Below, piece by piece: positions 1 to 11,395 of a stretch of DNA of 11,395 nt (position 1 is the stretch's first letter; every line of letters starts with the position of its first letter). The stretch is from a virus. The notes under the pieces were generated by a model. The model was not told the DNA's origin and did no database searches. It saw nothing but the letters and a program-made list of their open reading frames with translations. The position numbers and the translations under genes are program-made. The stretch lies in the UHGV virus genome UHGV-0117955, one strand, 5' to 3'.

Positions 1-6
1 ATAGCC

Positions 7-702
7 ATGTTATATGCATTTAAGCTGGGCAGAAAACTGCGCGGCGAGGAACCTTGGTGCCCTGAAAAAGGCGGGAAAGGTGGTAGCTCTGATAAAAGTG
101 CAAAGTATGCCGCAGAAGCTCAGAAGTATGCAGCAGACCTGCAAAATCAGCAGTGGCAGACGATCATGAAAAACCTTGCTCCGTTCACGCCTCTTGCGGA
201 GCAGTATGTTAACCAGCTTCAGAACCTTTCCAGTTTAGAAGGGCAGGGGCAGGCACTTAACCAGTATTACAACTCTCAGCAGTACAAAGACCTTGCTGGT
301 CAGGCGCGCTATCAGAGTCTGGTGGCAGCGGAAGCAACAGGTGGATTAGGTTCCACCGCAACCAGTAATCAGTTAGCAACAATCGCACCAACTCTTGGCC
401 AGCAATGGCTATCTGGACAAATGAACAACTACCAGAATCTGGCAAATATTGGTCTTGGCGCTCTTCAGGGACAGGCAAACGCCGGGCAAACATATGCCAA
501 CAACATGAGCCAGATTTCACAGCAAAGCGCGGCACTGGCGGCGGCAAACGCTAATAGACCTTCCGGCCTTCAATCTGCAATAGGCGGGGCTGCCTCTGGA
601 GCAATTGCTGGAGCACAACTTGGCAGCATTGTTCCTGGTATTGGTACTGGTATTGGTGCCGCTGTTGGTGGCGGTCTTGGTCTGCTTGGCTCGTTGTTTT
701 AA
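7..702 (+). CDS. P22-type ejection (injection) protein, gp7-like
   Basis: ATG at 7; the frame is open to the window edge, so the true start could lie upstream. 231 aa, Gln/Asn/Ala-rich with a Gly-rich hydrophobic C-terminus (…GIGTGIGAAVGGGLGLLGSLF). Stop TAA at 700-702. Size and position directly upstream of the gp20/gp16-like genes match the first of the three P22 ejection proteins (about 229 aa in P22, from memory). Confidence 0.6.
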   Translation: MLYAFKLGRKLRGEEPWCPEKGGKGGSSDKSAKYAAEAQKYAADLQNQQWQTIMKNLAPFTPLAEQYVNQLQNLSSLEGQGQALNQYYNSQQYKDLAGQARYQSLVAAEATGGLGSTATSNQLATIAPTLGQQWLSGQMNNYQNLANIGLGALQGQANAGQTYANNMSQISQQSAALAAANANRPSGLQSAIGGAASGAIAGAQLGSIVPGIGTGIGAAVGGGLGLLGSLF

Positions 703-711
703 GGGGTAATC

Positions 712-2178
712 ATGGCTACTTGGCAAGGAACAAATGGCGGATTGTTGGCTGGTATCGGTGGGGTCAACTCAAACGCTCCGAGCGTAAATGAGATCGGCAA
801 TACGCTTCAGCTTATCAGGCAGAACAATGATATTGAGCGCTCAGGCGCTAACAATGTTGGACTGACGGCCTTGCAAGGTCTTTCAGGTATTGCTGGTGTT
901 TTTCAGCAGGAAAAGCAGGCTCAGCGGCAGAAAGAATTTCAGCAGGCATACGCTAATGCTTATGCGTCTGGTGATCGCGGTGCTTTGCGTCAGTTGGCTA
1001 CTCAATATCCAGACCAGATTGAATCCGTTCGTAAAGGCATGGGATTCATTGATGAAGACCAGCGCAATTCTATCGGCACCTTAGCGGCTGGCGCACGCCT
1101 TGCGGCCTCGTCTCCAGAAGCAATGCAATCATGGCTGCAAAACAACGCCAAGGAACTGACTCGCGTCGGTGTTGACCCTAACAGCGTTGCTCAGATGTAT
1201 CAGCAGAACCCTTCAGGATTTGGTGAGTTTGTTGATCACCTTGGGATGGCTGCTCTTGGTCCGATTGATTACTTCAATGTTCAGGACAAGATGGCTGGTC
1301 GTGAAATTGACCGAGGCAGGCTGGCAGAGACAATCCGCAGCAATCAGGCCGGCGAAGCACTTCAGGCGAGAGGGCAGGATATTAGCCGAGCAAATGCGTT
1401 AACGTCAGCATATGCACCAACAGCCGCAATGCAGAATTACAATCAGTACGCGCAAATGTTAAAGGCAGATCCAGATGGTGCAGCGGCATTTGCGGCAGCG
1501 GCGGGAATTAATCCCAATGCTAAGAAATTACTTAAGGTTGAAACCAATCCTGATGGCTCGGTAACTAAGTATTACACCGATGGCAGCGAGGAAGCCGGAA
1601 AACTAAACCAACCTATATCTGGTGATGGCATTAAACCAATTAGCTTGCCACAAGCGCAAAGCATCATAGATAAGGCTAATGAGGGTTCCAAGAAGGCGGC
1701 GGGATTTGCTTTGCGATTAAAAGATTCAATGGACTCAATGAATCAGCTTAGTAAAAGCATTGACCCTAAGCGAGTTGCATTAATAAATCGCTCTCTTGGT
1801 GATGGGACTATTGCAAATTTAAGCCTATCACCAGCGGAGCAGCAATATATGGTAAATGCGAGAGACGCCTTGTATGCAATTTTGCGCCCAGAAACAGGTG
1901 CAGCAATTACTCTGCCAGAGATGCAGGAGTATTCCAAAATGTACCTGCCTCAGCCCGGTGATTCCAAGGCTGCTACTGAAACAAAAATGCGAAAAATGCA
2001 GGGCCAATATAACTCATTACGTGGTCAGTCTGGTCGCGTTTATGATGCTTTGGTGGTTTCAAGTGCTGCAAATAGTCAACAACAGAGCAATAGCCAACAA
2101 CCGACAAATACCCAACAGAAGCAGAGTCAATCCGGATCATATACCTCAAAATCAGGCATTCAATTTACGGTGGAATGA
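712..2178 (+). CDS. P22-type ejection protein, gp20-like
   Basis: ATG at 712 preceded by AAGGGG (701-706). 488 aa, Ala/Gln-rich, with a Q/S-rich low-complexity C-terminus. Its stop overlaps the next start as ATGA (2175-2178), indicating translational coupling. Order and size fit the P22 7-20-16 ejection-protein trio. Confidence 0.6.
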
Positions 2179-4007
2179 TGAAAGTAACTGCAAACGGTAA
2201 GACATTTACCTTCCCTGATGGTACGAGCACGGAAGATATTGGCACCGCCATTGATGAGTATTTTGCTGGTCAGGCTGTTCAGCAACAAACAGTTAATCAG
2301 GCCAATAATGCACCAACACAGGAAGAACCATCATTGATGCAACAAGCTGGCGATTGGCTCACTGGTGGTCAAAGTGCAGGGCAAATTGCAGAACAGGCTG
2401 GTCGTGGTCTGGTAAACATACCATTTGACGTATTGCAGGGTGGCGCAAGTCTGATTAATGCAATCAGTCAGGGGCTTGGTGGGCCAAAAGTATTGGATGA
2501 TGTCTATCGTCCAGTCGATCGACCGACAGACCCTTATGCGCAAGCTGGAGAAACAATTGGCGGGTATTTAGTTCCAGGAGTTGGAACGGCAGGAAGCATG
2601 GCTATTGGATCACTGGCAGAGGCCGCAAATCAGAAAGGCGATTTCGCACAAAATGCAGCTAAAAATGCCGGAGTTAACCTTGCCGCTCAGGGTGTTCTTT
2701 CCGCAGCAGCAAAGGGAATAGGGCGTGGAATTACTGCTGTTCGTGGCGAAATATCACCAGCAGATCAGCAATTGCTCAAGCGTGCCGCTGCGGCAGATGT
2801 ACCAGTTATGACATCGGATGTAGTTCCTCCAAAAACAAAACTTGGCAATCAACTGCAGGGTTACTCAGAAGGAGTCATAGCTGGTACTGGACCAATGAGA
2901 GCCGCACAGCAGGATGCCAGAACCAAGCTTGTTAATCGCTTCACCGAAAAATACGGCGACTACGATCCATCTGTAGTCGTTGATAGTCTAAAGTCAGGCG
3001 TTGCAAGGGAAAAATCGTTAGCCAAGTCAAAACTAAACAACCTGTCAGGAAGAATGGTTGGAAAGCCAGTTGATACAAGTGGCGCCATAAGAGCCATCGA
3101 CGGAGCAGTAAACGAACTTGGGAAACTTAAAGGTGTTTCTGACACCCAGACCATTTCTGCGCTTAATGATTATAAGAATGCCATTCAGGAGATAACAAAT
3201 GGAGATGATGCCTTTGAGTTACTTGATAAGCTGAGAACTCAGTTCCGCATTGACGTAAAAGGCGATCGCACAGTTCTGCCATCAATGTCGCAAACAATGA
3301 TCAACAGGGTCTACAACTCGCTAACCAATAGCCTTAGTAAATCTATAGCGAAAGGACTTAGCCCAAAAGATGCTTCAGCATGGAGAGCGGGAAAAGCTGA
3401 TTATGCAAAAATGGCAACACATGCAACTCAAACGCGCCTTAAAAACGTTCTAAACAAAGGAGATTTAACTCCCGAGGCTGTAAATACCATTGTGTATGGA
3501 CAATATGGGTCAGATATAGCTCGATTGTACGGGAAACTCGATCAAAAAGGTAAAGACATGCTAAGGGCGGCATATATCAGCAAAATAGCTGACAAGGTAG
3601 GTGACAGCCCTCAGAAAATGATGACCGAGCTTGGCAAGCTGCAAAAACAAGCAAATGGTCAGGTGTTTAAAACTGTATTTGGTGGGAAGAACGGAAAAGA
3701 GATAGAGGGGATGTTATCTATTCTCGATGCTACCAAAAGAGCATCTGAGGCTAATGTTGTGACGAAGACTGGCATGACACTCGCGCCTTTGGTAAGGGTT
3801 ATTGGTAACCTAAAAACCGGAGGCGCGCTATTGGCTGGGGAAACAGGGATTGGCCTTATGTCGAGGGTTTATGAAAGCCCTATGGCTAGGAATGCGCTCT
3901 TACGTCTGGCAAACACTAAAGCTGGAACGCCAGCTTATGAAAGAGCGCTGAATAACGCCGCAAATGCCATCAGACCAATACTTGCCAATGATGCAACTGA
4001 TCGCTAA
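2175..4007 (+). CDS. P22-type ejection protein, gp16-like
   Basis: ATGATG start at 2175 overlapping the upstream stop. 610 aa, against about 609 aa for P22 gp16. Last gene of the ejection-protein trio, directly before the immunity region as in P22. Stop TAA at 4005-4007. Confidence 0.65.
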
Positions 4008-4028
4008 GGGTTGATGTCATGGATGTTG

Positions 4029-4667
4029 TTAATTGCGAATGGAATCGCGGAACTCTTTACTTGATAGAAAAGGATCTGTTCTCCTTAACTCATCATAGTT
4101 TTTATTAAACTTTCTTGCTTCACCTGGGTATCTGTTGAACAAAACATTGCAGAAAAAAGAGAGCAATAACTCACATATGAATGCTAATACCCTGAAAAAT
4201 AAAGGTATAAAAAGAAGGGAAGGTTCATTGAAGTCTCTATTCCAAACAAAATAGACAATCATCCCGACATACCAAATTGATATCCCTATACTGATGATTG
4301 TTCCAACAGAGGTAACTACGACCCCGATTAAGTCGGACAGTCTGTTTGCCAGTAACTCATTTGAGTATCTTGCAATCATATACCGCCAACATTTTGCAAT
4401 ATCATCCTGATCTGTAGAGTCTTCTGGAATAGCTAGGCTTCTACATATTGAAGTAGCTCTTTTTTTCTCAACTCTTTTTGAGAGCCATCCATTAAAGAGA
4501 TACATCAACACCTGCGTTGCTATTCCTGCACCAAGTGATATCAAAGACATCCCAAAAAATCGCCATCCTGGAGATAGCGACTGGTACTGCCAAACAAAAA
4601 AAATTAAAAAACCCAATGAGCCTATGACATAGGCTGATGTATCGCTATATATATCTATTTTTTTCAT
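4029..4667 (-). CDS. Integral membrane protein (four predicted TM helices) in the sieA position; candidate superinfection-exclusion protein
   Basis: The track ORF 4029..4700 begins with GTG and has no Shine-Dalgarno sequence. The in-frame ATG at 4667 is preceded by AAGGAG (4677-4681 on the - strand) and is the preferred start, giving 212 aa. Four long hydrophobic segments (YVIGSLGFLIFFVWQY; FFGMSLISLGAGIATQVLMYLF; LIGVVVTSVGTIISIGISIWYVGMIVYFVW; LLFIPLFFRVLAFICELLLSFFCNVLF) separated by charged loops. Markedly AT-rich compared with the flanking structural genes. It lies directly downstream of, and on the same strand as, the Mnt-like gene, where P22 carries sieA. The functional call is positional only. 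Confidence 0.45.
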   Translation of the reverse strand: MKKIDIYSDTSAYVIGSLGFLIFFVWQYQSLSPGWRFFGMSLISLGAGIATQVLMYLFNGWLSKRVEKKRATSICRSLAIPEDSTDQDDIAKCWRYMIARYSNELLANRLSDLIGVVVTSVGTIISIGISIWYVGMIVYFVWNRDFNEPSLLFIPLFFRVLAFICELLLSFFCNVLFNRYPGEARKFNKNYDELRRTDPFLSSKEFRDSIRN

Positions 4668-4717
4668 TGAGTAGCCACTCCTTAGTTTTGAGCAGAACAC
4701 CGGATGATAATGTTTTG

Positions 4718-4969
4718 TTATGTGTCTTTTGGGATTCTATCCAGTAACTCGTTGGAAATTTTATCAAGTAAAGATTTTATTTGTTTAAGATCTAATGATT
4801 TGTCTACTGATGAGACGTCAGATGATAACGCATCCTCAAGAATTTGAACTATCTCTGAGTTCATAGATCGACCGTTTCGTTTAGCCCTTTCCGCAATAGC
4901 ACTACGCATGCCGTCAGGCATTCTAACCGTAAATCTTTCTATGAAATTTGATTCGTCTTTTTCTGACAT
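4718..4969 (-). CDS. Mnt-like ribbon-helix-helix repressor (copy 1)
   Basis: The translation contains FTVRMPDGMRSAIAERAKRNGRSMNSEIVQILEDALS, closely matching the N-terminal ribbon-helix-helix region of P22 Mnt/Arc (FNFRMP…ANGRSMNSELLQIVQDALS, recalled). The track ORF starts at 5017 with a hydrophobic leader that would overlap the promoter; the preferred start is the internal ATG at 4969, giving 83 aa (P22 Mnt is 83 aa). Stop TAA at 4718-4720. Confidence 0.7.
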   Translation of the reverse strand: MSEKDESNFIERFTVRMPDGMRSAIAERAKRNGRSMNSEIVQILEDALSSDVSSVDKSLDLKQIKSLLDKISNELLDRIPKDT

Positions 4970-5018
4970 TTTCTTATTCGCAAGGCATATGAGCAATAAA
5001 AAACACAGTAGCATCATA

Positions 5019-5079
5019 TTGACATTATGAGCAATGGCATCATAATGGTGTCATGACATCATGGTGATGTCATTATGAC
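5019..5079. promoter_or_regulatory. Divergent overlapping promoters with palindromic operator-like sites (Pant/Pmnt-like)
   Basis: Rightward promoter: -35 TTGACA (5019-5024), 16-bp spacer, -10 CATAAT (5041-5046). Candidate leftward promoter on the - strand: -35 TGACAC (5053-5048), 17-bp spacer, -10 CATAAT (5030-5025). Perfect 10-bp palindrome TGTCATGACA (5049-5058) at the predicted rightward transcript start. Perfect 11-bp palindrome GTCATtATGAC (5069-5079). Repeated TGACAT/ATGTCA half-sites at 5020, 5054 and 5067. The architecture mirrors the overlapping Pant/Pmnt and operators of P22 immI. Confidence 0.55.
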
Positions 5080-5089
5080 GGAGATATTG

Positions 5090-5266
5090 ATGATGAGCGA
5101 TGTTCTTTACAGTGGTCGTAAAAGTCAGAGTTTCCAGCTTCGTTTGCCAGCGCGAATGAAGGAGGAGATCAGACGCGTAGCTGAAATGGATGGAATTTCT
5201 ATCAACTCTGCGATTGTGCAGCGACTGGCTAAAAGCCTGAGAGAGGAAAGAGCTAATGCCCAGTAA
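5090..5266 (+). CDS. Arc-like ribbon-helix-helix repressor
   Basis: 58 aa from ATG 5090, with GGAG (5080-5083) 6 nt upstream; the track ORF start at 5075 has no Shine-Dalgarno sequence. The motif SFQLRLPARMKEEIRRVAEMDGISINSAIVQRLAKSL matches the Arc/Mnt fold (P22 Arc is 53 aa, with FNLRWP…NGRSVNSEIYQRV). It sits directly downstream of the TTGACA/CATAAT promoter. Confidence 0.7.
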   Translation: MMSDVLYSGRKSQSFQLRLPARMKEEIRRVAEMDGISINSAIVQRLAKSLREERANAQ

Positions 5267-5339
5267 AAATAGTGAAGCCCGGAAGTGCGCGAACACAAAC
5301 CGGGCCTCTATGTCAGTAACCGTACCCAAGGAAACTAAC

Positions 5340-5978
5340 ATGAATATTGTAGCAAAATCAGATTATAACTTCCAAGGATTCACTTTTAACCCTGTAACAG
5401 AGGGCGGGTCTATCTGGTTCACCTCCGCCGAACTAGCTAAGGCTCTCGGCTATAAAAAAACTGATGCCATCAGCCAAATTTATGCCCGTAATGCTGACGA
5501 ATTTTCCGACTCAATGTCATTGACCCTCAATATGAAGGTCAACGGAATAAACAATAGCTTACGTAACAAATCGGTCAGAGTTTACTCGCTCCGAGGCGCT
5601 CACTTGGTGGCGATGTTTGCTTCTACGCCCAAGGCCAAAGAGTTCCGCCGCTGGGTGCTGGATATTTTGGATCGGCAGGCAGAATGCTCACCGATTGCAA
5701 AACAGTTTACTGACGAAGAACTGGTTAATCTCTGCTACTTACAATTGTGGATGGAGAAGAGTCAACAAATGTGCAAACACATCTACCCAGGAATGAAGCA
5801 AATTGGTTCTGAGCTTTCAGGAAGGATTTACGATATTGCATATGAGACTCGCTACATGTCAGAAGAAACCAAGAAATCACTTCTTCGTGAAATGAAGAAT
5901 CTTGATACCAACAATTTTGTCGTAAAGAACGCTCAGCCAATGCTGGCAAAACTGCGCGGCGAGGAATGGATTCATTGA
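5340..5978 (+). CDS. Bro-N domain antirepressor-like protein
   Basis: ATG at 5340 preceded by AAGGAA (5327-5332). The N-terminus (FQGFTFNPVTEGGSIWFTSAELAKALGY) looks like a Bro-N/antirepressor N-terminal domain. An alternative upstream ATG at 5256 overlaps the arc stop and is considered less likely. Stop TGA at 5976-5978. Confidence 0.6.
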   Translation: MNIVAKSDYNFQGFTFNPVTEGGSIWFTSAELAKALGYKKTDAISQIYARNADEFSDSMSLTLNMKVNGINNSLRNKSVRVYSLRGAHLVAMFASTPKAKEFRRWVLDILDRQAECSPIAKQFTDEELVNLCYLQLWMEKSQQMCKHIYPGMKQIGSELSGRIYDIAYETRYMSEETKKSLLREMKNLDTNNFVVKNAQPMLAKLRGEEWIH

Positions 5979-5982
5979 TTGG

Positions 5983-6028
5983 TGCGCCGGACGGCGCAAA
6001 AAGAAAACCGCCAGTGTGCTGCTGGCGG
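5983..6028. other. Two GC-rich intercistronic stem-loops
   Basis: Hairpin 1: TGCGCC-ggac-GGCGCA (5983-5998). Hairpin 2: CCGCCAG-tgtgctg-CTGGCGG (6008-6028), a 7-bp stem with a 7-nt loop. An A-rich run (5998-6007) lies between them, so on the - strand hairpin 2 is followed by TTTTCTTTT and resembles an intrinsic terminator facing leftward. Confidence 0.5.
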
Positions 6029-6066
6029 CCTATGTCACACCCTTACTACCACATAAGGAATGCCTA

Positions 6067-6795
6067 ATGACTTTTAAGAATGTAGCAAACATCGGATCCG
6101 TTGTCACGGATAAAACCATTGATAGCCAGTACCTGTTAGAGATGGTCAATCATGCTCGTAGACATTGCGGGGAAAAAGAAGTCCGCAATAACGACTTTAT
6201 TGCACGCATTAAGGATGAACTTGAAGGTGAGCACTACGAAATTTTCGTAGTTCAAAAATCAAACAAGACAACTTCTGAAAAAGTTGTTATGTCAATTAAG
6301 CAAGCCCTTCGAGTGGCTGCTCGTGAATCTAAAGCTGTTCGCCGCTCACTTGTAGACCAACTTGAAAGTATGCAAGAAGCGCACATTAAAAGCGGTAAAT
6401 CGTCGAGTGGACTTGTTGAGTATCGCCAGGCGCGAACATTGAAAATGACGGTTGAAGCTGTTACCAATCTGTTCGATTTGATGCCAAATCTTGCGCCGGA
6501 AGCAAAGCAGACTGCGGCAGCAAGCATAATCAACCCGATCGTTGGTTTTAATGCAATACCTCTTCCAGCAATAGAAGAGCATTACTACTCAGCAGGGGAG
6601 GTTGCAGAGCAGCTTGGAGTAACGGCCAACAAGATTGGTCGCATTGCTAACGCAAACAACCTCAAAACTGAGCAGTACGGTAAGTTCTTCCTGGATAAAT
6701 CTGCGCATTCCAGCAAACAGGTGGAAGCATTCCGCTACAATGCGGAAGGTGTTAAAGCACTACAACACCTGATTCATGGGAGTAATGTTGCATAA
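6067..6795 (+). CDS. Antirepressor-like protein (possible AntA-like N-terminus and KilA-C/ANT-like C-terminus)
   Basis: ATG at 6067 preceded by AAGGAA (6055-6060); the track ORF begins at a GTG at 6016. 242 aa. The C-terminal segment YYSAGEVAEQLGVTANKIGRIANANNL resembles the helix-turn-helix-like core of phage KilA-C/ANT domains, and the N-terminal part (…NDFIARIKDEL…) loosely resembles AntA-type domains. Domain calls are from memory and need an HMM search. The gene sits where ant sits in P22 immI. Confidence 0.4.
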   Translation: MTFKNVANIGSVVTDKTIDSQYLLEMVNHARRHCGEKEVRNNDFIARIKDELEGEHYEIFVVQKSNKTTSEKVVMSIKQALRVAARESKAVRRSLVDQLESMQEAHIKSGKSSSGLVEYRQARTLKMTVEAVTNLFDLMPNLAPEAKQTAAASIINPIVGFNAIPLPAIEEHYYSAGEVAEQLGVTANKIGRIANANNLKTEQYGKFFLDKSAHSSKQVEAFRYNAEGVKALQHLIHGSNVA

Positions 6796-7016
6796 TGGCA
6801 AAGAAAAAATATGGCATTATGCCGCCAAGAATCAAAGGAAGAGCCAGGGTAAAAGGCGATGCTGGAAGGTATCACATTCTTGGAGTTCTGTGGCATGAGA
6901 GAGCTTTAATTTTAAGTAGACCTCATGGGTACATTGAAAAGGTATCTATAGATAGAGTAGAGATTCTTCCCCTTACACCTGAAGAAGAAGAAACGTACGG
7001 ACTTTTTGATAACTAA
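6795..7016 (+). CDS. Hypothetical small protein (73 aa), translationally coupled to the upstream gene
   Basis: TAATG stop/start overlap at 6793-6797. GGGAG at 6778-6782. Basic N-terminus (MAKKKYGIMPPRIKGRARVKGD) and acidic C-terminus (TPEEEETYGLFDN). No recognisable motif. Ends just before the terminator at 7024. Confidence 0.5.
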   Translation: MAKKKYGIMPPRIKGRARVKGDAGRYHILGVLWHERALILSRPHGYIEKVSIDRVEILPLTPEEEETYGLFDN

Positions 7017-7023
7017 CCAACTA

Positions 7024-7047
7024 AACCCGCTTAATCGCGGGTTTTTT
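7024..7047. terminator. Intrinsic terminator between convergent genes
   Basis: AACCCGC-ttaatc-GCGGGTT stem-loop (7024-7043) followed by TTTTTT on the + strand. It lies between the stop of the 73-aa ORF (7016) and the convergent mnt-like gene, whose last codons and stop (7031-7033) are encoded within the stem. Confidence 0.7.
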
Positions 7048-7288
7048 CTTTTCTAAGGATATCAGCCACAACTTCTTTTACTCGTTCCGAGATTAATGAG
7101 GCCAGCCTCTCTTCTTCATCGCGATGCCCGCTTACAGGTGATGGTTTGGAGAGTGATTCTTCCATCGTAGCCACAATTTCGGAATTGATAGACCTGTTAT
7201 TCATTTTTGCACGTTGCTTAATCTTAGCGTGCAACTCGTGCGTAAGCCTCAAGTGGAACTGCGCCTCATCGTATTTGCTGTACATCAT
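7031..7288 (-). CDS. mnt: Mnt-like ribbon-helix-helix repressor (copy 2; the closer match to P22 Mnt)
   Basis: The translation MMYSKYDEAQFHLRLTHELHAKIKQRAKMNNRSINSEIVATMEESLSKPSPVSGHRDEEERLASL… aligns along its length with P22 Mnt as recalled (…FNFRMP…ANGRSMNSELLQIVQDALSKPSPVTGYRNDAERLA…). 85 aa from ATG 7288, with GAGG 5 nt upstream on the - strand. The track ORF (7031..7684) extends 132 codons further upstream across the tailspike start and is treated as a spurious extension. Confidence 0.8.
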   Translation of the reverse strand: MMYSKYDEAQFHLRLTHELHAKIKQRAKMNNRSINSEIVATMEESLSKPSPVSGHRDEEERLASLISERVKEVVADILRKEKTRD

Positions 7289-7420
7289 CAATGCCTCACC
7301 AAATGGGTGGAATGGCATCGTAAAACCTACTGTACAAATCAACAATCGTACCATTTCGGTATGCAATAAACGCCAACCGTAGCCATGCTGCGGCGATTCC
7401 TTGTATCTGGAGCAAATTAA

Positions 7421-10153
7421 ATGACAGACATTACAGCTAATGTTGTAGTGAGTATGCCTTCGCAACTCTTCACTATGGCTCGTTCTTTTAAAGCCGTAGC
7501 TAATGGCAAAATTTATATCGGTAAAATTGACACTGACCCTGTAAATCCTGAAAACCAGATTCAGGTTTATGTGGAGAACGAAGACGGTTCTCACGTTCCT
7601 GTTGCACAGCCAATCGTCATTAATGCTGCTGGATATCCGGTATATAACGGGCAGATTGCCAAATTCGTAACTGTGCAAGGCCATTCTATGGCTGTATATG
7701 ATGCGTATGGCACGCAGCAGTTCTATTTCCCTAATGTGCTGAAGTATGACCCGGATCAGTTACGGCAGCAATTAGAAGATCCTGATGGTGCTAAAAAATA
7801 CCCTGAATTACAGATTGCACGATGGCGGGATGATAAAGACGTTCGCGGGTGGGGGGCGGATGACTCTGGGAATAGAGATTCAACACAGGCTTTTCTTGAC
7901 GCCGCATCTAGCGCAGGAAAGAGTGGTTTGGTTCATGTGCCTTCTGGTGAGTTTATAGTTGATGCATCGAAAATAGATATTTCACGCTTCTCCGGTGATG
8001 GTGTTCTAATCAGTAATGGTGTTCGCATTTCTGTTAATCCGCCGATGCAAAGTTTCTCCATTGGACAAAGAAAACTTGCGACCCTGAATTTTGGTGATGA
8101 TATCAATGCGCCAACTATATATGCGAATGCACAAAATGCATTGCAGGGAATAGCTTGTGTAAGGCATGAAGGTATTGAGAAGGTTTTTATCACTCAACAG
8201 GTTGGAGGTTCTAACTGGGGAAAGGACACCCTCACAAGGATCAGTGAGTGGCACTATACAAGCGATGGTTCAACTCTTTATGTTGTGACATTTACAGAGC
8301 CATTGCCTCTTGGTCACGGTTCAGATCTTTCTGCCACAATAGAGAACGGTGAACTATATCTGTTTACAACAACAATTGCTGAGACTGGTTCCTCTCTAGG
8401 AGGGAAGGGGTATTCAAAGACAAAATGGAAAGGGGCATCAACATCTGCTGAAGATATAACTCATTACCGAGTATTTGGTGAGCCGGGTGATAATAATCTG
8501 ATTAACCTTGCGCAGCGGGCAAGTATTTGTGTATCTAATGATGGGCGATATGTCATATTAATTGCGACATCAAACGCTGGGACTGGCCGCTTTTTATACG
8601 TATATGATCGCAAAGAAGTGGAATCTTCTTCTAACCCAATGAAAGTTAGACCGATTAATGGTCCTGTTCCACTTGTCCGTGGTAAAGGTCAGTATGGTGC
8701 AACACTTCAGGGTATTACATCAGATAGCAGATATATTTACACAATTTGGGGTGGCGTTCCTGCAAGATGCGTAAGGACAGTACAGATTTATGATATGGGT
8801 GGTACGCTAATACGTTCATTTCCTGTATCACTTGCCGCATCACTTTATACAGAGACTCAGTTAAATGGTTCTGACTCTAAAATCGGAGTTCCGGTTAGCT
8901 TTGAGCCTGAAGGGCTGGCAATAAGAGGTGATGAACTTGTCTGTGGTGCTATGGATGTATGGAAAAGCGCAGGGGATGTTGTAAGCCATCGTGGTAAAAA
9001 TTGGGTAAGTATTGTTACTGGTGATAACAAGGGAAATCTTCCGACAAACAGGTCTTATTGGTTAAAAACATCGCTTGCAGCGACAAGTGGTGAATGGGAT
9101 TCAGGCGCAACATATAAATCAGGTGATTATACTCGCAGAAATAAGCATCTGTTTGGAATAGCAAACCTGTCTGATATTCTTGGCAACCATCCAGTGCATG
9201 GTGCAGAATCCGATCCGTATACCGGAACCGCGCATCAATATTATGCTGGAACTGATATCGCCTTTAACCGTGAGCACGGTTCATTTACTATTGCGATATT
9301 TGACGAAGCCATTGGAGAGTATACCAAATCCCTCGAGTTGAATTATGGAAATAACCTTAACCTGTTTGATACAGATTACGGACATGACAATAATTCATGG
9401 GTAAGTACGAAAGCAGTATTCGACTCAAACTTTCGAGGTATGCAGTTCCGTTCTAAAGATGGGAATACTGCGGGTGGTGCTTATATTGATATCCATGCTG
9501 CTGATTGTCCATCTGCGGCTGGTGAGTTGATACTTGCCTCTACAGATGGAGGTGTCGTCAGACTTAAGCAGGGGAATGTAACAGTATTTTCTGCGACTAA
9601 AGATACTACATCGACATGGGCGACGACGACATTAAGGCCAACAACTGATAACCAGGTATCACTTGGAAGGTCCGTTAACCGCTTTTCTCAGGTCTACGCA
9701 GGGACTGCAACTATAAATACATCTGATGCAACAGAGAAAACGGAAGTCAGAACTCTTTCCGATAAAGAGCAGGCGGTTGGGTTAGCTCTTGTTGATGAAA
9801 TTGGTTTTTATCAATGGCTTGATAGTGTAAAAAATAAGGGAGCTGATGCCAGACTTCATGCCGGACTTACGGTGCAACGGGCAATGGAAATATTCAGAGA
9901 GAATGGACTTGATCCATTTAAATACGGAGCGATCTGCTATGACAGATGGGATGCATATGCAGATACAGATCCTGCTATTTATGATGATAAAGGTAACCTT
10001 GTTCGTGAGGCTATAACTATTACGCATGAAGCAGGAGAACGCTATGCATTCAGAAATGATGAATTACAGTATCTAATGATTGCTGCATTAGGTATACGTC
10101 AGAAAAATATTATAAAGAGGATTGAAGAACTGGAAAATAAGCTTGCAAATTAA
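7421..10153 (+). CDS. Tailspike protein: P22-type N-terminal head-binding domain fused to a divergent receptor-binding/depolymerase body
   Basis: GGAG at 7409-7412, ATG at 7421. The first ~115 aa ([11 protein letters not shown]…[39 protein letters not shown]…[13 protein letters not shown]…NVLKYDPDQ) are near-identical in pattern to the N-terminus of P22 gp9 as recalled. The rest (about 795 aa, against 667 aa total in P22) is unlike the P22 endorhamnosidase body. The last ~142 aa resemble a C-terminal intramolecular chaperone module: a TSD motif at Ser768 (nt 9722-9724), then [20 protein letters not shown] and a terminal coiled-coil-like [14 protein letters not shown]. Confidence 0.85.
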
Positions 10154-10235
10154 CTATTTTACTGACACCTTAAGTCTCAATATTACCAATTGAAGTCTAT
10201 GTTTTTTGGGTGTTTTAGTAATTTGTTATAGATAA

Positions 10236-10274
10236 ATGTCACTCCTTAAAGATATCGCATTCTAGGAGTGACAT
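10236..10274. repeat. Perfect 11-bp inverted repeat (stem-loop) between convergent genes
   Basis: ATGTCACTCCT (10236-10246) and AGGAGTGACAT (10264-10274) flank a 17-nt loop containing GATATC. It lies between the tailspike stop (10153) and the acetyltransferase stop (10309). No clean T-tract on either side, so it is not a canonical intrinsic terminator. Confidence 0.6.
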
Positions 10275-10308
10275 GTGATTTACTTGTCGTTCAATATATG
10301 GTGTGTTT

Positions 10309-11019
10309 TTATTGTTTTTCTTTTGTTAGGTTCCAATATTCACTTGTGGTTTTTATGGAGTCCTTATTAGGCTTTACATAAGGTTTATGTATGGAGAGAT
10401 GAGGTCTTTCCCAGGCAATGTCTTTTTTTATTACTCTTGCTGGAACTCCTGCTGCAATAGAGTTATTTGGGACGTGTCCTTTAACAACAGCTGCATAGCC
10501 AATAACACTACCACTTTCGATTTCTGCACCACCAAGTATTGCCGCTCGGCGGCCAACCCAGACATGACTTCCAATATAAATAGATTTTGGCATATTTATA
10601 CGTTCACCTGTTACTACACTAAAAATAGGGTGGGAGTCATCAGTTTTAACTTCATTTCCACTTGAAAACATGCAGTCATCGCCAATAATTATGCTTGAGT
10701 TTTCTACAGCAGAAATCATACCTTTACCAGTGCAAGTGAAATCAGAGCCTATTTTTATGGAGGAATTCTCACCCACTCTTATATGGGCTTGTATACCTTT
10801 GTTTGCGATATGGCATGGGCCAATTTCAAAATACCCATTGTTGCAGTCAAAATATATCTCAAAATATTTTAATGATGCATCTTTATGAATGATAAGTTTA
10901 TTATTAGATCCTCTAAACTGAATTAGTTTGACGTCACAACTACCTTCGTACTGGATCTCATTACCCATTTCATCAGAATACTTCTCTGCTTTTGTTAAAA
11001 CAACTTTTCTAATTTTCAT
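10309..11019 (-). CDS. Hexapeptide-repeat (left-handed beta-helix) acyl/acetyltransferase; candidate lysogenic-conversion enzyme
   Basis: The C-terminal half carries typical hexapeptide-repeat motifs (IGDDCMFSSGNEV…IYIGSHVWVGRRAAILGGAEIESGSVIGYAAVVKGHVPNNSIAAGVPARVI). Strongly AT-rich relative to the structural genes. The track ORF begins at a TTG (11043); the first ATG is at 11019 (MKIRKVVL…), and neither has a strong Shine-Dalgarno sequence, so the start is uncertain. Stop TAA at 10309-10311. Confidence 0.75.
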   Translation of the reverse strand: MKIRKVVLTKAEKYSDEMGNEIQYEGSCDVKLIQFRGSNNKLIIHKDASLKYFEIYFDCNNGYFEIGPCHIANKGIQAHIRVGENSSIKIGSDFTCTGKGMISAVENSSIIIGDDCMFSSGNEVKTDDSHPIFSVVTGERINMPKSIYIGSHVWVGRRAAILGGAEIESGSVIGYAAVVKGHVPNNSIAAGVPARVIKKDIAWERPHLSIHKPYVKPNKDSIKTTSEYWNLTKEKQ

Positions 11020-11091
11020 ATTATCAATAAGTAAAAAATGCAAATGAAAATTTCAAATTTACATTATCTGGCGAGGTAATGCAACACGGAT

Positions 11092-11147
11092 GATTGGGGG
11101 GGCAGTATAATCACAATATCAACTAAAACATACCAGATGGGGGGGCA
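11092..11147. repeat. Two homopolymeric G7 tracts in a repeated GAT(T)GGGGGGGCA motif
   Basis: GATTGGGGGGGCA (11092-11104) and GATGGGGGGGCA (11136-11147), with the G7 runs at 11096-11102 and 11139-11145. TATAAT at 11106-11111 lies between them. Located 50-130 bp upstream of the acetyltransferase start, on the opposite strand. Confidence 0.6.
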
Positions 11148-11263
11148 TGCCTCATCGAAGTAAGGCAATTTTGGACACTGTCAAATAGAATGGTGCAATC
11201 ACTACTTTTTTGGTGTTACCATGATTTTAATGGATGAAAAACTTGCTGTGTCAGTTTTTCATC

Positions 11264-11284
11264 TGTGTACCAGATTGTGTACCA
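11264..11284. repeat. Tandem direct repeat TGTGTACCA x2
   Basis: TGTGTACCA at 11264-11272 and 11276-11284, separated by GAT. It lies in the AT-rich non-coding region upstream of a gene start at the window edge (AAGGA at 11381-11385, ATG at 11391). Confidence 0.5.
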
Positions 11285-11395
11285 ATTTAGCGATTGTTGG
11301 CTAGATGGTATCGTAATCAACTGTAAATAAACAAGTTTTCTCTTTGTATGTGATCTTTCGTGTGGGTCACCACTGCAAATAAGGATATAAAATGC

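Follow-up and report, generated by a model that had tools for sequence, protein, structure and literature searches.

The 11,395-nucleotide stretch of viral DNA analysed here (UHGV virus genome UHGV-0117955; hereafter the window) forms the right-hand end of a P22-like prophage that sits directly upstream of thrS (ATG at 11392), and between its tailspike gene and the prophage end lies a gene for a hexapeptide-repeat acetyltransferase. Comparative genomics suggests that this gene probably brings about lysogenic conversion, its product O-acetylating a host capsule that would also be the receptor of the tailspike. The gene order is P22-type and runs gp7, gp20, an open reading frame (ORF) at the gp16 position, Arc/Mnt-like repressors, an antirepressor, tailspike, acetyltransferase, attachment site (att) and thrS. 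Pfam identifies gp20 as Inj_translocase and gp7 as likewise P22-type and finds a P22 head-binding domain in the tailspike, and the assignment of the prophage as P22-like is therefore correct. In Escherichia coli genomes without the prophage, alignment with the window starts only at 11106 or 11166 and shows about 90% identity, which places the acetyltransferase gene within inserted prophage DNA. A first-pass annotation had proposed a low-GC hexapeptide-repeat acyltransferase gene that is convergent with the tailspike and occupies the slot in which P22-like prophages carry conversion genes, and this description holds in every part: the gene is oriented towards the tailspike gene, lies between it and the prophage end, and has a G+C content of 36.1%, against 42.7% for the tailspike gene and 43.5% for the window.

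Identity of the acetyltransferase and its genomic company

The ORF extends from an ATG at 11019 to 10309, stop codon included (the program's ORF list extends the start to a TTG at 11043), and RefSeq holds the ATG form as WP_001313877.1, annotated 'acyltransferase'. Pfam recognises a hexapeptide-repeat domain in the protein (PF00132 Hexapep, E 5.8e-7, over the curated cutoff), and there is no transmembrane or hydrophobic segment (isoelectric point 8.7). In a phmmer search of the PDB the best match was NeuO (3jqy, E 2.7e-32, 38.5% identity over residues 33-206), followed by OatWY (2wlc, E 5e-25). The AlphaFold model, built on 26 homologues, reached a predicted local distance difference test score (pLDDT) of 93.8, and Foldseek ranked NeuO chains first to third (E 2.7e-9) and OatWY chains fourth to eighth. 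In NeuO, His119 and Trp143 (His147 and Trp171 in crystal numbering) are catalytically important, with Met134 nearby (PMC3046976). His130, Trp154 and Met117 of the prophage enzyme align with NeuO His147, Trp171 and Met134 and are invariant in the 26 homologues; by homology, His130 is probably the catalytic base, Trp154 and Met117 probably line the active site, and the enzyme probably forms a trimer.

An alternative is that the protein is a cytoplasmic small-molecule or xenobiotic acetyltransferase of the maltose, galactoside, Vat or CatB type with no surface role. The C-terminal hexapeptide core is indeed common to these families (E 1e-15 to 1e-8), and maltose and galactoside acetyltransferases follow OatWY in the PDB search at E 1e-14 or weaker. 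All scores nevertheless fell 5- to 10-fold under the curated NCBIfam cutoffs (bits against cutoff: maltose 56/314, galactoside 51/347, WbbJ 54/243, Vat at most 37/300-475, with CatB also far below), likeness over the full length, N-terminal beta-helix included, is confined to NeuO and OatWY, and the genomic context of the family is polysaccharide synthesis. The leading position of NeuO and OatWY in both sequence and fold, the conserved residues and the low NCBIfam scores together identify an enzyme of the NeuO/OatWY type. We thus consider the protein very likely to be a polysaccharide O-acetyltransferase of this type, and a small-molecule acetyltransferase extremely unlikely.

Kinship with NeuO does not amount to orthology, which is ruled out by the 38.5% identity, by the lack of a heptanucleotide tract and by a tailspike that is not an endosialidase. 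Tandem Repeats Finder detected zero repeats in 10100-11395, so the heptanucleotide tract of neuO is not present. The first-pass annotation, which had set the gene apart from neuO on the same ground, was right to treat it as related but distinct.

Relatives closer than NeuO occur in many bacteria, at 42-64% identity over the full length. To our reading no member of this subfamily appears to have been characterised so far, and few capsule-modifying O-acetyltransferases of group-2 systems have been identified (PMC8262930). We scanned the neighbourhoods of the best 80 of 187 relatives, one genome per species, with flanks of up to 10 kb on each side (shorter at contig ends) and with TagF-like neighbours detected by a local phmmer search using five TagF-like seeds. 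A TagF-like ORF flanks the acetyltransferase homologue in 35 of the 80 loci; the distance is at most 3 kb in 32 of these and at most 0.5 kb in 14, a clustering not expected from uniform scatter over the flanks. All ten TagF-like neighbours that were sampled contain PF04464, often fused to a GT2 domain. Furthermore, the homologue has a kps context in eight proteobacterial loci. In Ewingella americana and Rahnella inusitata it belongs to region 2 of genuine group-2 kps loci, in which KpsM and KpsT share 79-83% identity with their E. coli counterparts, and KpsS, KpsC, KpsD and KpsE (with KpsF in Rahnella) 66-77%. In Pusillimonas and Acidovorax it sits in capsule loci of the Kps type, that is, with an ATP-binding cassette (ABC) transporter, adjoining genes for a TagD-like cytidylyltransferase and a TagF-like glycerophosphotransferase. 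Kps-type contexts also occur in Alcaligenaceae and Pseudomonas, and one Pseudomonas strain has the homologue in a flagellar glycosylation island with TagD- and TagF-like genes. From these neighbourhoods we propose that the subfamily supplies the acetyltransferases that accompany TagF-like polyol-phosphate polymerases in systems for ABC-exported glycopolymers.

The host capsule, the tailspike and the mobile module

The prophage is present in five of 5426 complete E. coli genomes (MS 16-3, TUM10008, EC24, E4 and GMF065). MS 16-3 has a group-2 kps locus at pheV whose region 2 encodes four proteins (Table 1), with no acetyltransferase gene in the locus and no neu genes in region 2. The cytidylyltransferase, the TagF-like protein and the 701-residue protein are 72%, 44% and 39% identical to the products of Acidovorax genes in the same order, and the next gene in Acidovorax encodes an acetyltransferase homologue 59% identical to the prophage enzyme. 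The E. coli locus therefore looks like that of Acidovorax minus the acetyltransferase, and the prophage supplies one. According to the supplementary tables of a 2026 catalogue of genotype-defined capsule types (kTYPr, PMC13171606), region 2 of type K117 comprises a GT8 protein, a 701-residue protein with PF05159 at 493-637, a 369-residue TagF-like protein and a 131-residue cytidylyltransferase, in a locus of about 14.8 kb. As far as these tables describe the type, we provisionally assign the capsule genotype of the lysogens to K117. K2 and K24 were also considered and set aside; the K24 region-2 proteins differ, and the gene content fits K117. K24, a related type, is reported in a structure paper of 1990 to be a polymer of 3-deoxy-D-manno-oct-2-ulosonic acid and glycerol phosphate.

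Three separate searches, for region-2 DNA, for the acetyltransferase gene and for the tailspike receptor domain, returned exactly the same five of the 5426 complete genomes, region 2 being complete in each. Some 55 other genomes have just the first 389 bp of region 2, corresponding to the cytidylyltransferase gene, and SE15 and SCU-102 have every region-2 gene except that for GT8, at 94-96% identity, and no copy of the prophage. The five hosts are not one clone, their thrS-pheT flanks falling into two haplotypes 1.45% apart. MS 16-3 is of type O4, and E4 and EC24 are of type O7; with O types that differ in this way, the O antigen cannot be the receptor that the hosts share, and the capsule is indicated instead. 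Where the first-pass annotation had left O antigen or capsule as the modified glycan, the capsule is thus borne out by the co-occurrence with kps, and the O antigen is not. Its suggestion that the enzyme could act on the polysaccharide targeted by the tailspike gains support, at the level of comparative genomics, from the perfect co-occurrence and from the homologues in capsule loci.

That the enzyme modifies the O antigen or another common envelope glycan (enterobacterial common antigen, colanic acid or the lipopolysaccharide core), in the manner of phage Oac or WbbJ-type enzymes, would be in keeping with most P22-like conversion genes, which target the O antigen, and with the weak WbbJ-like match noted above. 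The same enzyme is found in O4 and O7 lysogens, however, the WbbJ score lies far under its cutoff, and the enzyme is soluble and belongs to a family that tracks ABC-transporter-type polyol-phosphate polymers. We reject the O antigen as the target because the lysogens are O4 and O7, and find a common envelope glycan of this kind very improbable overall; the target is very probably a group-2 K antigen of the teichoic-acid type.

The tailspike combines the head-binding domain with an endosialidase-type S74 intramolecular chaperone and resembles the tailspike of phage CUS-3 at the N and C termini only. It has no endosialidase catalytic domain, the sole Pfam match being sub-threshold and falling in the stalk (residues 730-767), and its central domain has no sequence match in the PDB. 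Homology to the neck appendage protein gp12 of Bacillus phage GA1 extends over residues 153-890 at 29% identity. The receptor domain is modelled as a five-bladed propeller, closest in Foldseek to proteins of staphylococcal phages (phi11 Gp45, NF5, 80alpha and P68) and then to generic five-bladed propellers. Phage phi11, whose receptor-binding protein Gp45 contains a propeller, requires N-acetylglucosamine on wall teichoic acid (PMC4901313). This likeness to teichoic-acid binders fits a teichoic-acid-like capsule as the receptor, and the tailspike most likely recognises the capsule of the lysogens.

The tailspike, acetyltransferase gene and att form a block (window 7439-11395) that keeps 99.2-99.7% identity in every context examined, among them at least four prophages that are mosaic or degraded, and the remainder (window 1-7438) is mosaic and unlike every other copy. 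The acetyltransferase protein does not vary among the nine contexts read, three IMG/VR contigs and four of the five complete genomes; the DNA of the fifth, GMF065, is 99.6% identical. Its 90%-identity cluster has 48 member sequences on 358 contigs. Three remnant prophages without virion genes keep both the tailspike and the acetyltransferase intact, and in GMF065 the tailspike is truncated at the N-terminus and the acetyltransferase is intact. A 64%-identical acetyltransferase is convergent with a 952-residue tailspike in a non-P22-like phage type (L015 and L016), and the receptor domain of that tailspike is 32% identical over about 780 residues; the L015 module had no match in complete E. coli genomes or deposited phages. 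Six IMG/VR contigs carry more distant homologues (36-46%) located 0.1-3.5 kb from ORFs with an S74-type fibre or spike C-terminus. On one of these contigs, L117, a TagD-like gene also lies 2.3 kb from the homologue.

Related tailspikes can have other enzymes beside them. The closest relative of the receptor domain (52%, on L142) is followed by two hexapeptide-repeat proteins (3133-3915, minus strand; 4890-5639, plus strand), acetyltransferases that are non-orthologous and only remotely similar to the prophage enzyme. In the P22-like phage vB_EcoP-683R2 (ON470594.1), whose tailspike is 46% identical over residues 1-721, the same convergent slot holds a 178-residue 'lysophospholipase L1-like esterase' of SGNH type (6520-7056) in place of the hexapeptide acetyltransferase, which may be an alternative acetyl-editing enzyme.

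Several observations weigh against the proposal that the enzyme modifies the capsule recognised by the tailspike. The propeller model is of moderate confidence (pLDDT 73.8, Foldseek template modelling score about 0.33). In 45 of the 80 homologue loci there is no TagF-like neighbour within the flanks of up to 10 kb per side. The match of MS 16-3 region 2 to K117 in gene content, protein lengths and domain coordinates was drawn from supplementary tables, not from a reference alignment. The co-occurrence comprises five complete genomes that represent perhaps two or three independent lineages, a pattern for which host range could suffice. Tailspike relatives of the Pseudomonas siphovirus type and of Mu-like phages have no acetyltransferase adjoining. 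The promoter scan gave no site in 11020-11165 and nothing usable near the acetyltransferase gene, upstream of which no Shine-Dalgarno sequence was recognised.

Two further explanations draw on these points. The first is mere physical linkage, in which the gene is a moron beside att and just one of the enzyme and the tailspike acts on the capsule; morons accumulate at prophage ends whatever their function, some tailspike relatives lack the acetyltransferase, and the association with a kps type could come from host range. Against it stand the retention of the pair in a second, unrelated phage type, the movement of the tailspike-acetyltransferase-att block as a unit among mosaic prophages, the occurrence of enzyme homologues as region-2 genes of syntenic capsule loci, and a tailspike fold that matches teichoic-acid binders. 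We judge linkage alone to be unlikely. The second, that the gene is cargo, either silent or in decay, that serves no function at present, would account for the unrecognised promoter and ribosome-binding site in low-GC foreign DNA and for the degraded state of several prophages. As the ORF is intact in every copy read and survives both in remnants stripped of virion genes and beside the truncated tailspike of GMF065, however, this seems improbable.

Therefore, we hypothesise that lysogenic conversion proceeds by capsule O-acetylation. The prophage would express a soluble, cytoplasmic, acetyl-CoA-dependent hexapeptide-repeat enzyme that O-acetylates the group-2, ABC-exported K117-type polymer, presumably teichoic-acid-like and containing glycerol phosphate, at the cytoplasmic face and ahead of export by KpsMT; acetylation in the cytoplasm before export is also how NeuO and OatWY modify their polymers. 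Tailspike and acetyltransferase would then constitute a module of receptor recognition and receptor modification like that of endosialidase and NeuO in CUS-3. If the capsule is the tailspike receptor, lysogeny changes the phage's own receptor, which may lower adsorption of related phages, cut the loss of progeny on cell debris and alter antigenicity. A more far-reaching version holds that a temperate E. coli phage recognises a Gram-positive-style, teichoic-acid-like capsule through a staphylococcal-phage-type propeller and carries the missing O-acetyltransferase of that capsule, that lysogeny sets the acetylated versus the non-acetylated K antigen, and that the subfamily is the general O-acetyltransferase of TagF-type polymers; we regard this as a serious possibility that falls somewhat short of an even chance.

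Flanks of the gene and the prophage end

Coordinates of the features are collected in Table 1. The hairpin between the two convergent genes folded with z-scores of -2.7 and -3.3 on the two strands, and no shuffled sequence folded equally well. It has no U-tract and was not called by the terminator scan; it is possibly a two-way terminator or an RNA-stability element.

Table 1 Features of the window and of the capsule locus of lysogen MS 16-3
Feature	Position	Strand	Description and basis
Tailspike	7421..10153	+	910 aa; P22 head-binding domain PF09008 (E 1e-66) and endosialidase-type S74 chaperone PF13884
Tailspike, P22 head-binding domain	aa 1-113		
Tailspike, central receptor domain	aa 121-730; nt 7781-9610	+	
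Tailspike, stalk and S74 intramolecular chaperone	aa ~731-910		
Hairpin between tailspike and acetyltransferase genes	10236..10274	both strands fold	11 + 3 bp stem; RNA folding compared with shuffles
O-acetyltransferase gene, NeuO/OatWY-like	10309..11019	-	236 aa, left-handed beta-helix, soluble; ORF, PF00132, phmmer, AlphaFold/Foldseek
Upstream region of acetyltransferase gene	11020..11165	-	two G7 tracts (C7 on the coding strand); sequence
Prophage-chromosome junction	11106..11395	+	diverged phage copy of the sequence upstream of thrS, leader included, adjoining thrS; ~90% identity with the corresponding region in 5417 prophage-free genomes
Cytidylyltransferase	MS 16-3 kps region 2		131 aa; cytidine diphosphate-glycerol synthase, TagD-like; annotated, wrongly, as pantoate ligase
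TagF-like protein	MS 16-3 kps region 2		369 aa
KpsC/S-type protein	MS 16-3 kps region 2		701 aa; Capsule_synth domain
Glycosyltransferase	MS 16-3 kps region 2		GT8

The two G7 tracts upstream of the gene (11096-11102 and 11139-11145, that is, 77-83 and 120-126 nucleotides upstream of the ATG) could not be fitted into a convincing promoter. The first is G7 in most assemblies, G8 in two independent ones and G6 in GMF065, where the second is also G6. Phase variation through these tracts is unsupported, because their length differs little among assemblies and sequencing error is also possible. PADLOC returned no match for the acetyltransferase, and nothing was found in the literature on this gene or prophage.

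The prophage integrates within the promoter and leader region of thrS and brings its own diverged copy (about 90% identical), to which thrS is fused in lysogens. Their autoregulatory thrS leader is thus of phage origin in part. The final 45 or so nucleotides ahead of the thrS ATG are identical across all genomes. Part of the leader (window 11254-11363) is repeated past the integrase at the opposite end of the prophage, and in one of the remnant prophages (locus L008) the positions concerned are 9657-9766, 19922-19949 and 20078-20186.

Further upstream in the window, the ORF at the gp16 position (610 residues) has no family match, and its counterpart in related prophages matches PF26808 Phage_P22_gp16. 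Between this ORF and the Arc/Mnt-like genes, an ORF of 223 residues on the minus strand (4029-4700; G+C about 36-39%) encodes several hydrophobic stretches and has no match in Pfam or PADLOC. Its slot is that of sieA in P22, and it is possibly a superinfection-exclusion gene. The lysogen MS 16-3 also contains, elsewhere, a gtrA/gtrB-like pair (yfdG and yfdH) together with a 421-residue protein (L021, 11101-13656), located near sbcB next to the remnant of an integrase; this is a second conversion module, of the O-antigen type.

Comparison with known surface-modifying systems

To our knowledge, type K1 with CUS-3 and NeuO is the one E. coli system in which a prophage is known to control O-acetylation of the capsule. 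There, acetylation of the capsule by NeuO affects antigenicity and virulence. If our proposal is correct, the prophage described here is a second, independent case in a different capsule chemistry, implying that phages repeatedly pair a capsule-recognising tailspike with a capsule-editing enzyme, and it assigns a function to a widespread, uncharacterised acetyltransferase subfamily. In a 2026 study, acetylation differences such as that between K18 and K22 were attributed to probable acetyltransferases outside the capsule locus. The subfamily would be a concrete candidate class for the enzymes postulated for such pairs, and the present case a template for finding their genes. It would also be a warning for K typing: a type called from kps alone takes no account of modifications encoded by prophages, which matter for vaccines and phage therapy.

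NeuO of CUS-3 shares with the prophage enzyme the left-handed beta-helix with an extended N-terminal helix and the His/Trp/Met active site, and its gene likewise belongs to a P22-like (Lederbergvirus) prophage, where it follows the tailspike gene directly and lies near att. The CUS-3 tailspike agrees with the one here in its head-binding N-terminus and its S74 chaperone C-terminus but is an endosialidase, whereas the receptor domain here is modelled as a five-bladed propeller. The neuO gene of CUS-3 contains 19 copies of the heptanucleotide of its (AAGACTC)n poly-psi tract, of which the gene here has none. In CUS-3, neuO is co-directional with the tailspike gene and is followed by the integrase gene, whereas here the two genes are convergent and the integrase gene lies at the other end of the prophage. 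Integration is at thrS and not at the site used by CUS-3, and the hosts carry a glycerol-phosphate-type kps region 2 in place of the neu genes of the K1 host.

OatWY of Neisseria meningitidis serogroups W and Y, the second-best relative in sequence and structure, is also a cytoplasmic enzyme acting on a capsule polymer exported by an ABC transporter. Its gene, however, belongs to the capsule locus rather than to a phage, the substrate of the enzyme contains sialic acid, and the similarity is limited to the C-terminal 120 residues. The gtrABC genes of P22 and Oac of Sf6 occupy the same slot between tailspike and prophage end and follow the same presumed receptor-modifying logic, but their products are unrelated (membrane glucosyltransferases and an acyltransferase-3 protein) and have as their target O antigen, which they modify at the inner membrane or beyond it, whereas the enzyme here would act on a capsule polymer in the cytoplasm. 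NeaT of CFT073, considered as a relative, was rejected as a member of an unrelated acyltransferase family with homologues of the Sf6 Oac type.

Closest of all are the acetyltransferases encoded beside TagF-like polymerases in the Ewingella and Rahnella kps loci, in the Acidovorax and Pusillimonas capsule loci and in actinobacterial teichoic-acid clusters, which belong to the same subfamily (42-61% full-length identity) and share with the prophage enzyme a conserved C-terminal 'AWERP...W' tail. Those genes are chromosomal and lie inside the biosynthetic locus, whereas here the gene has moved onto a prophage and the host locus is without it. This general type of system is already represented by NeuO and CUS-3, from which the present case differs in enzyme subfamily, capsule chemistry and tailspike fold and in having no phase-variation tract.

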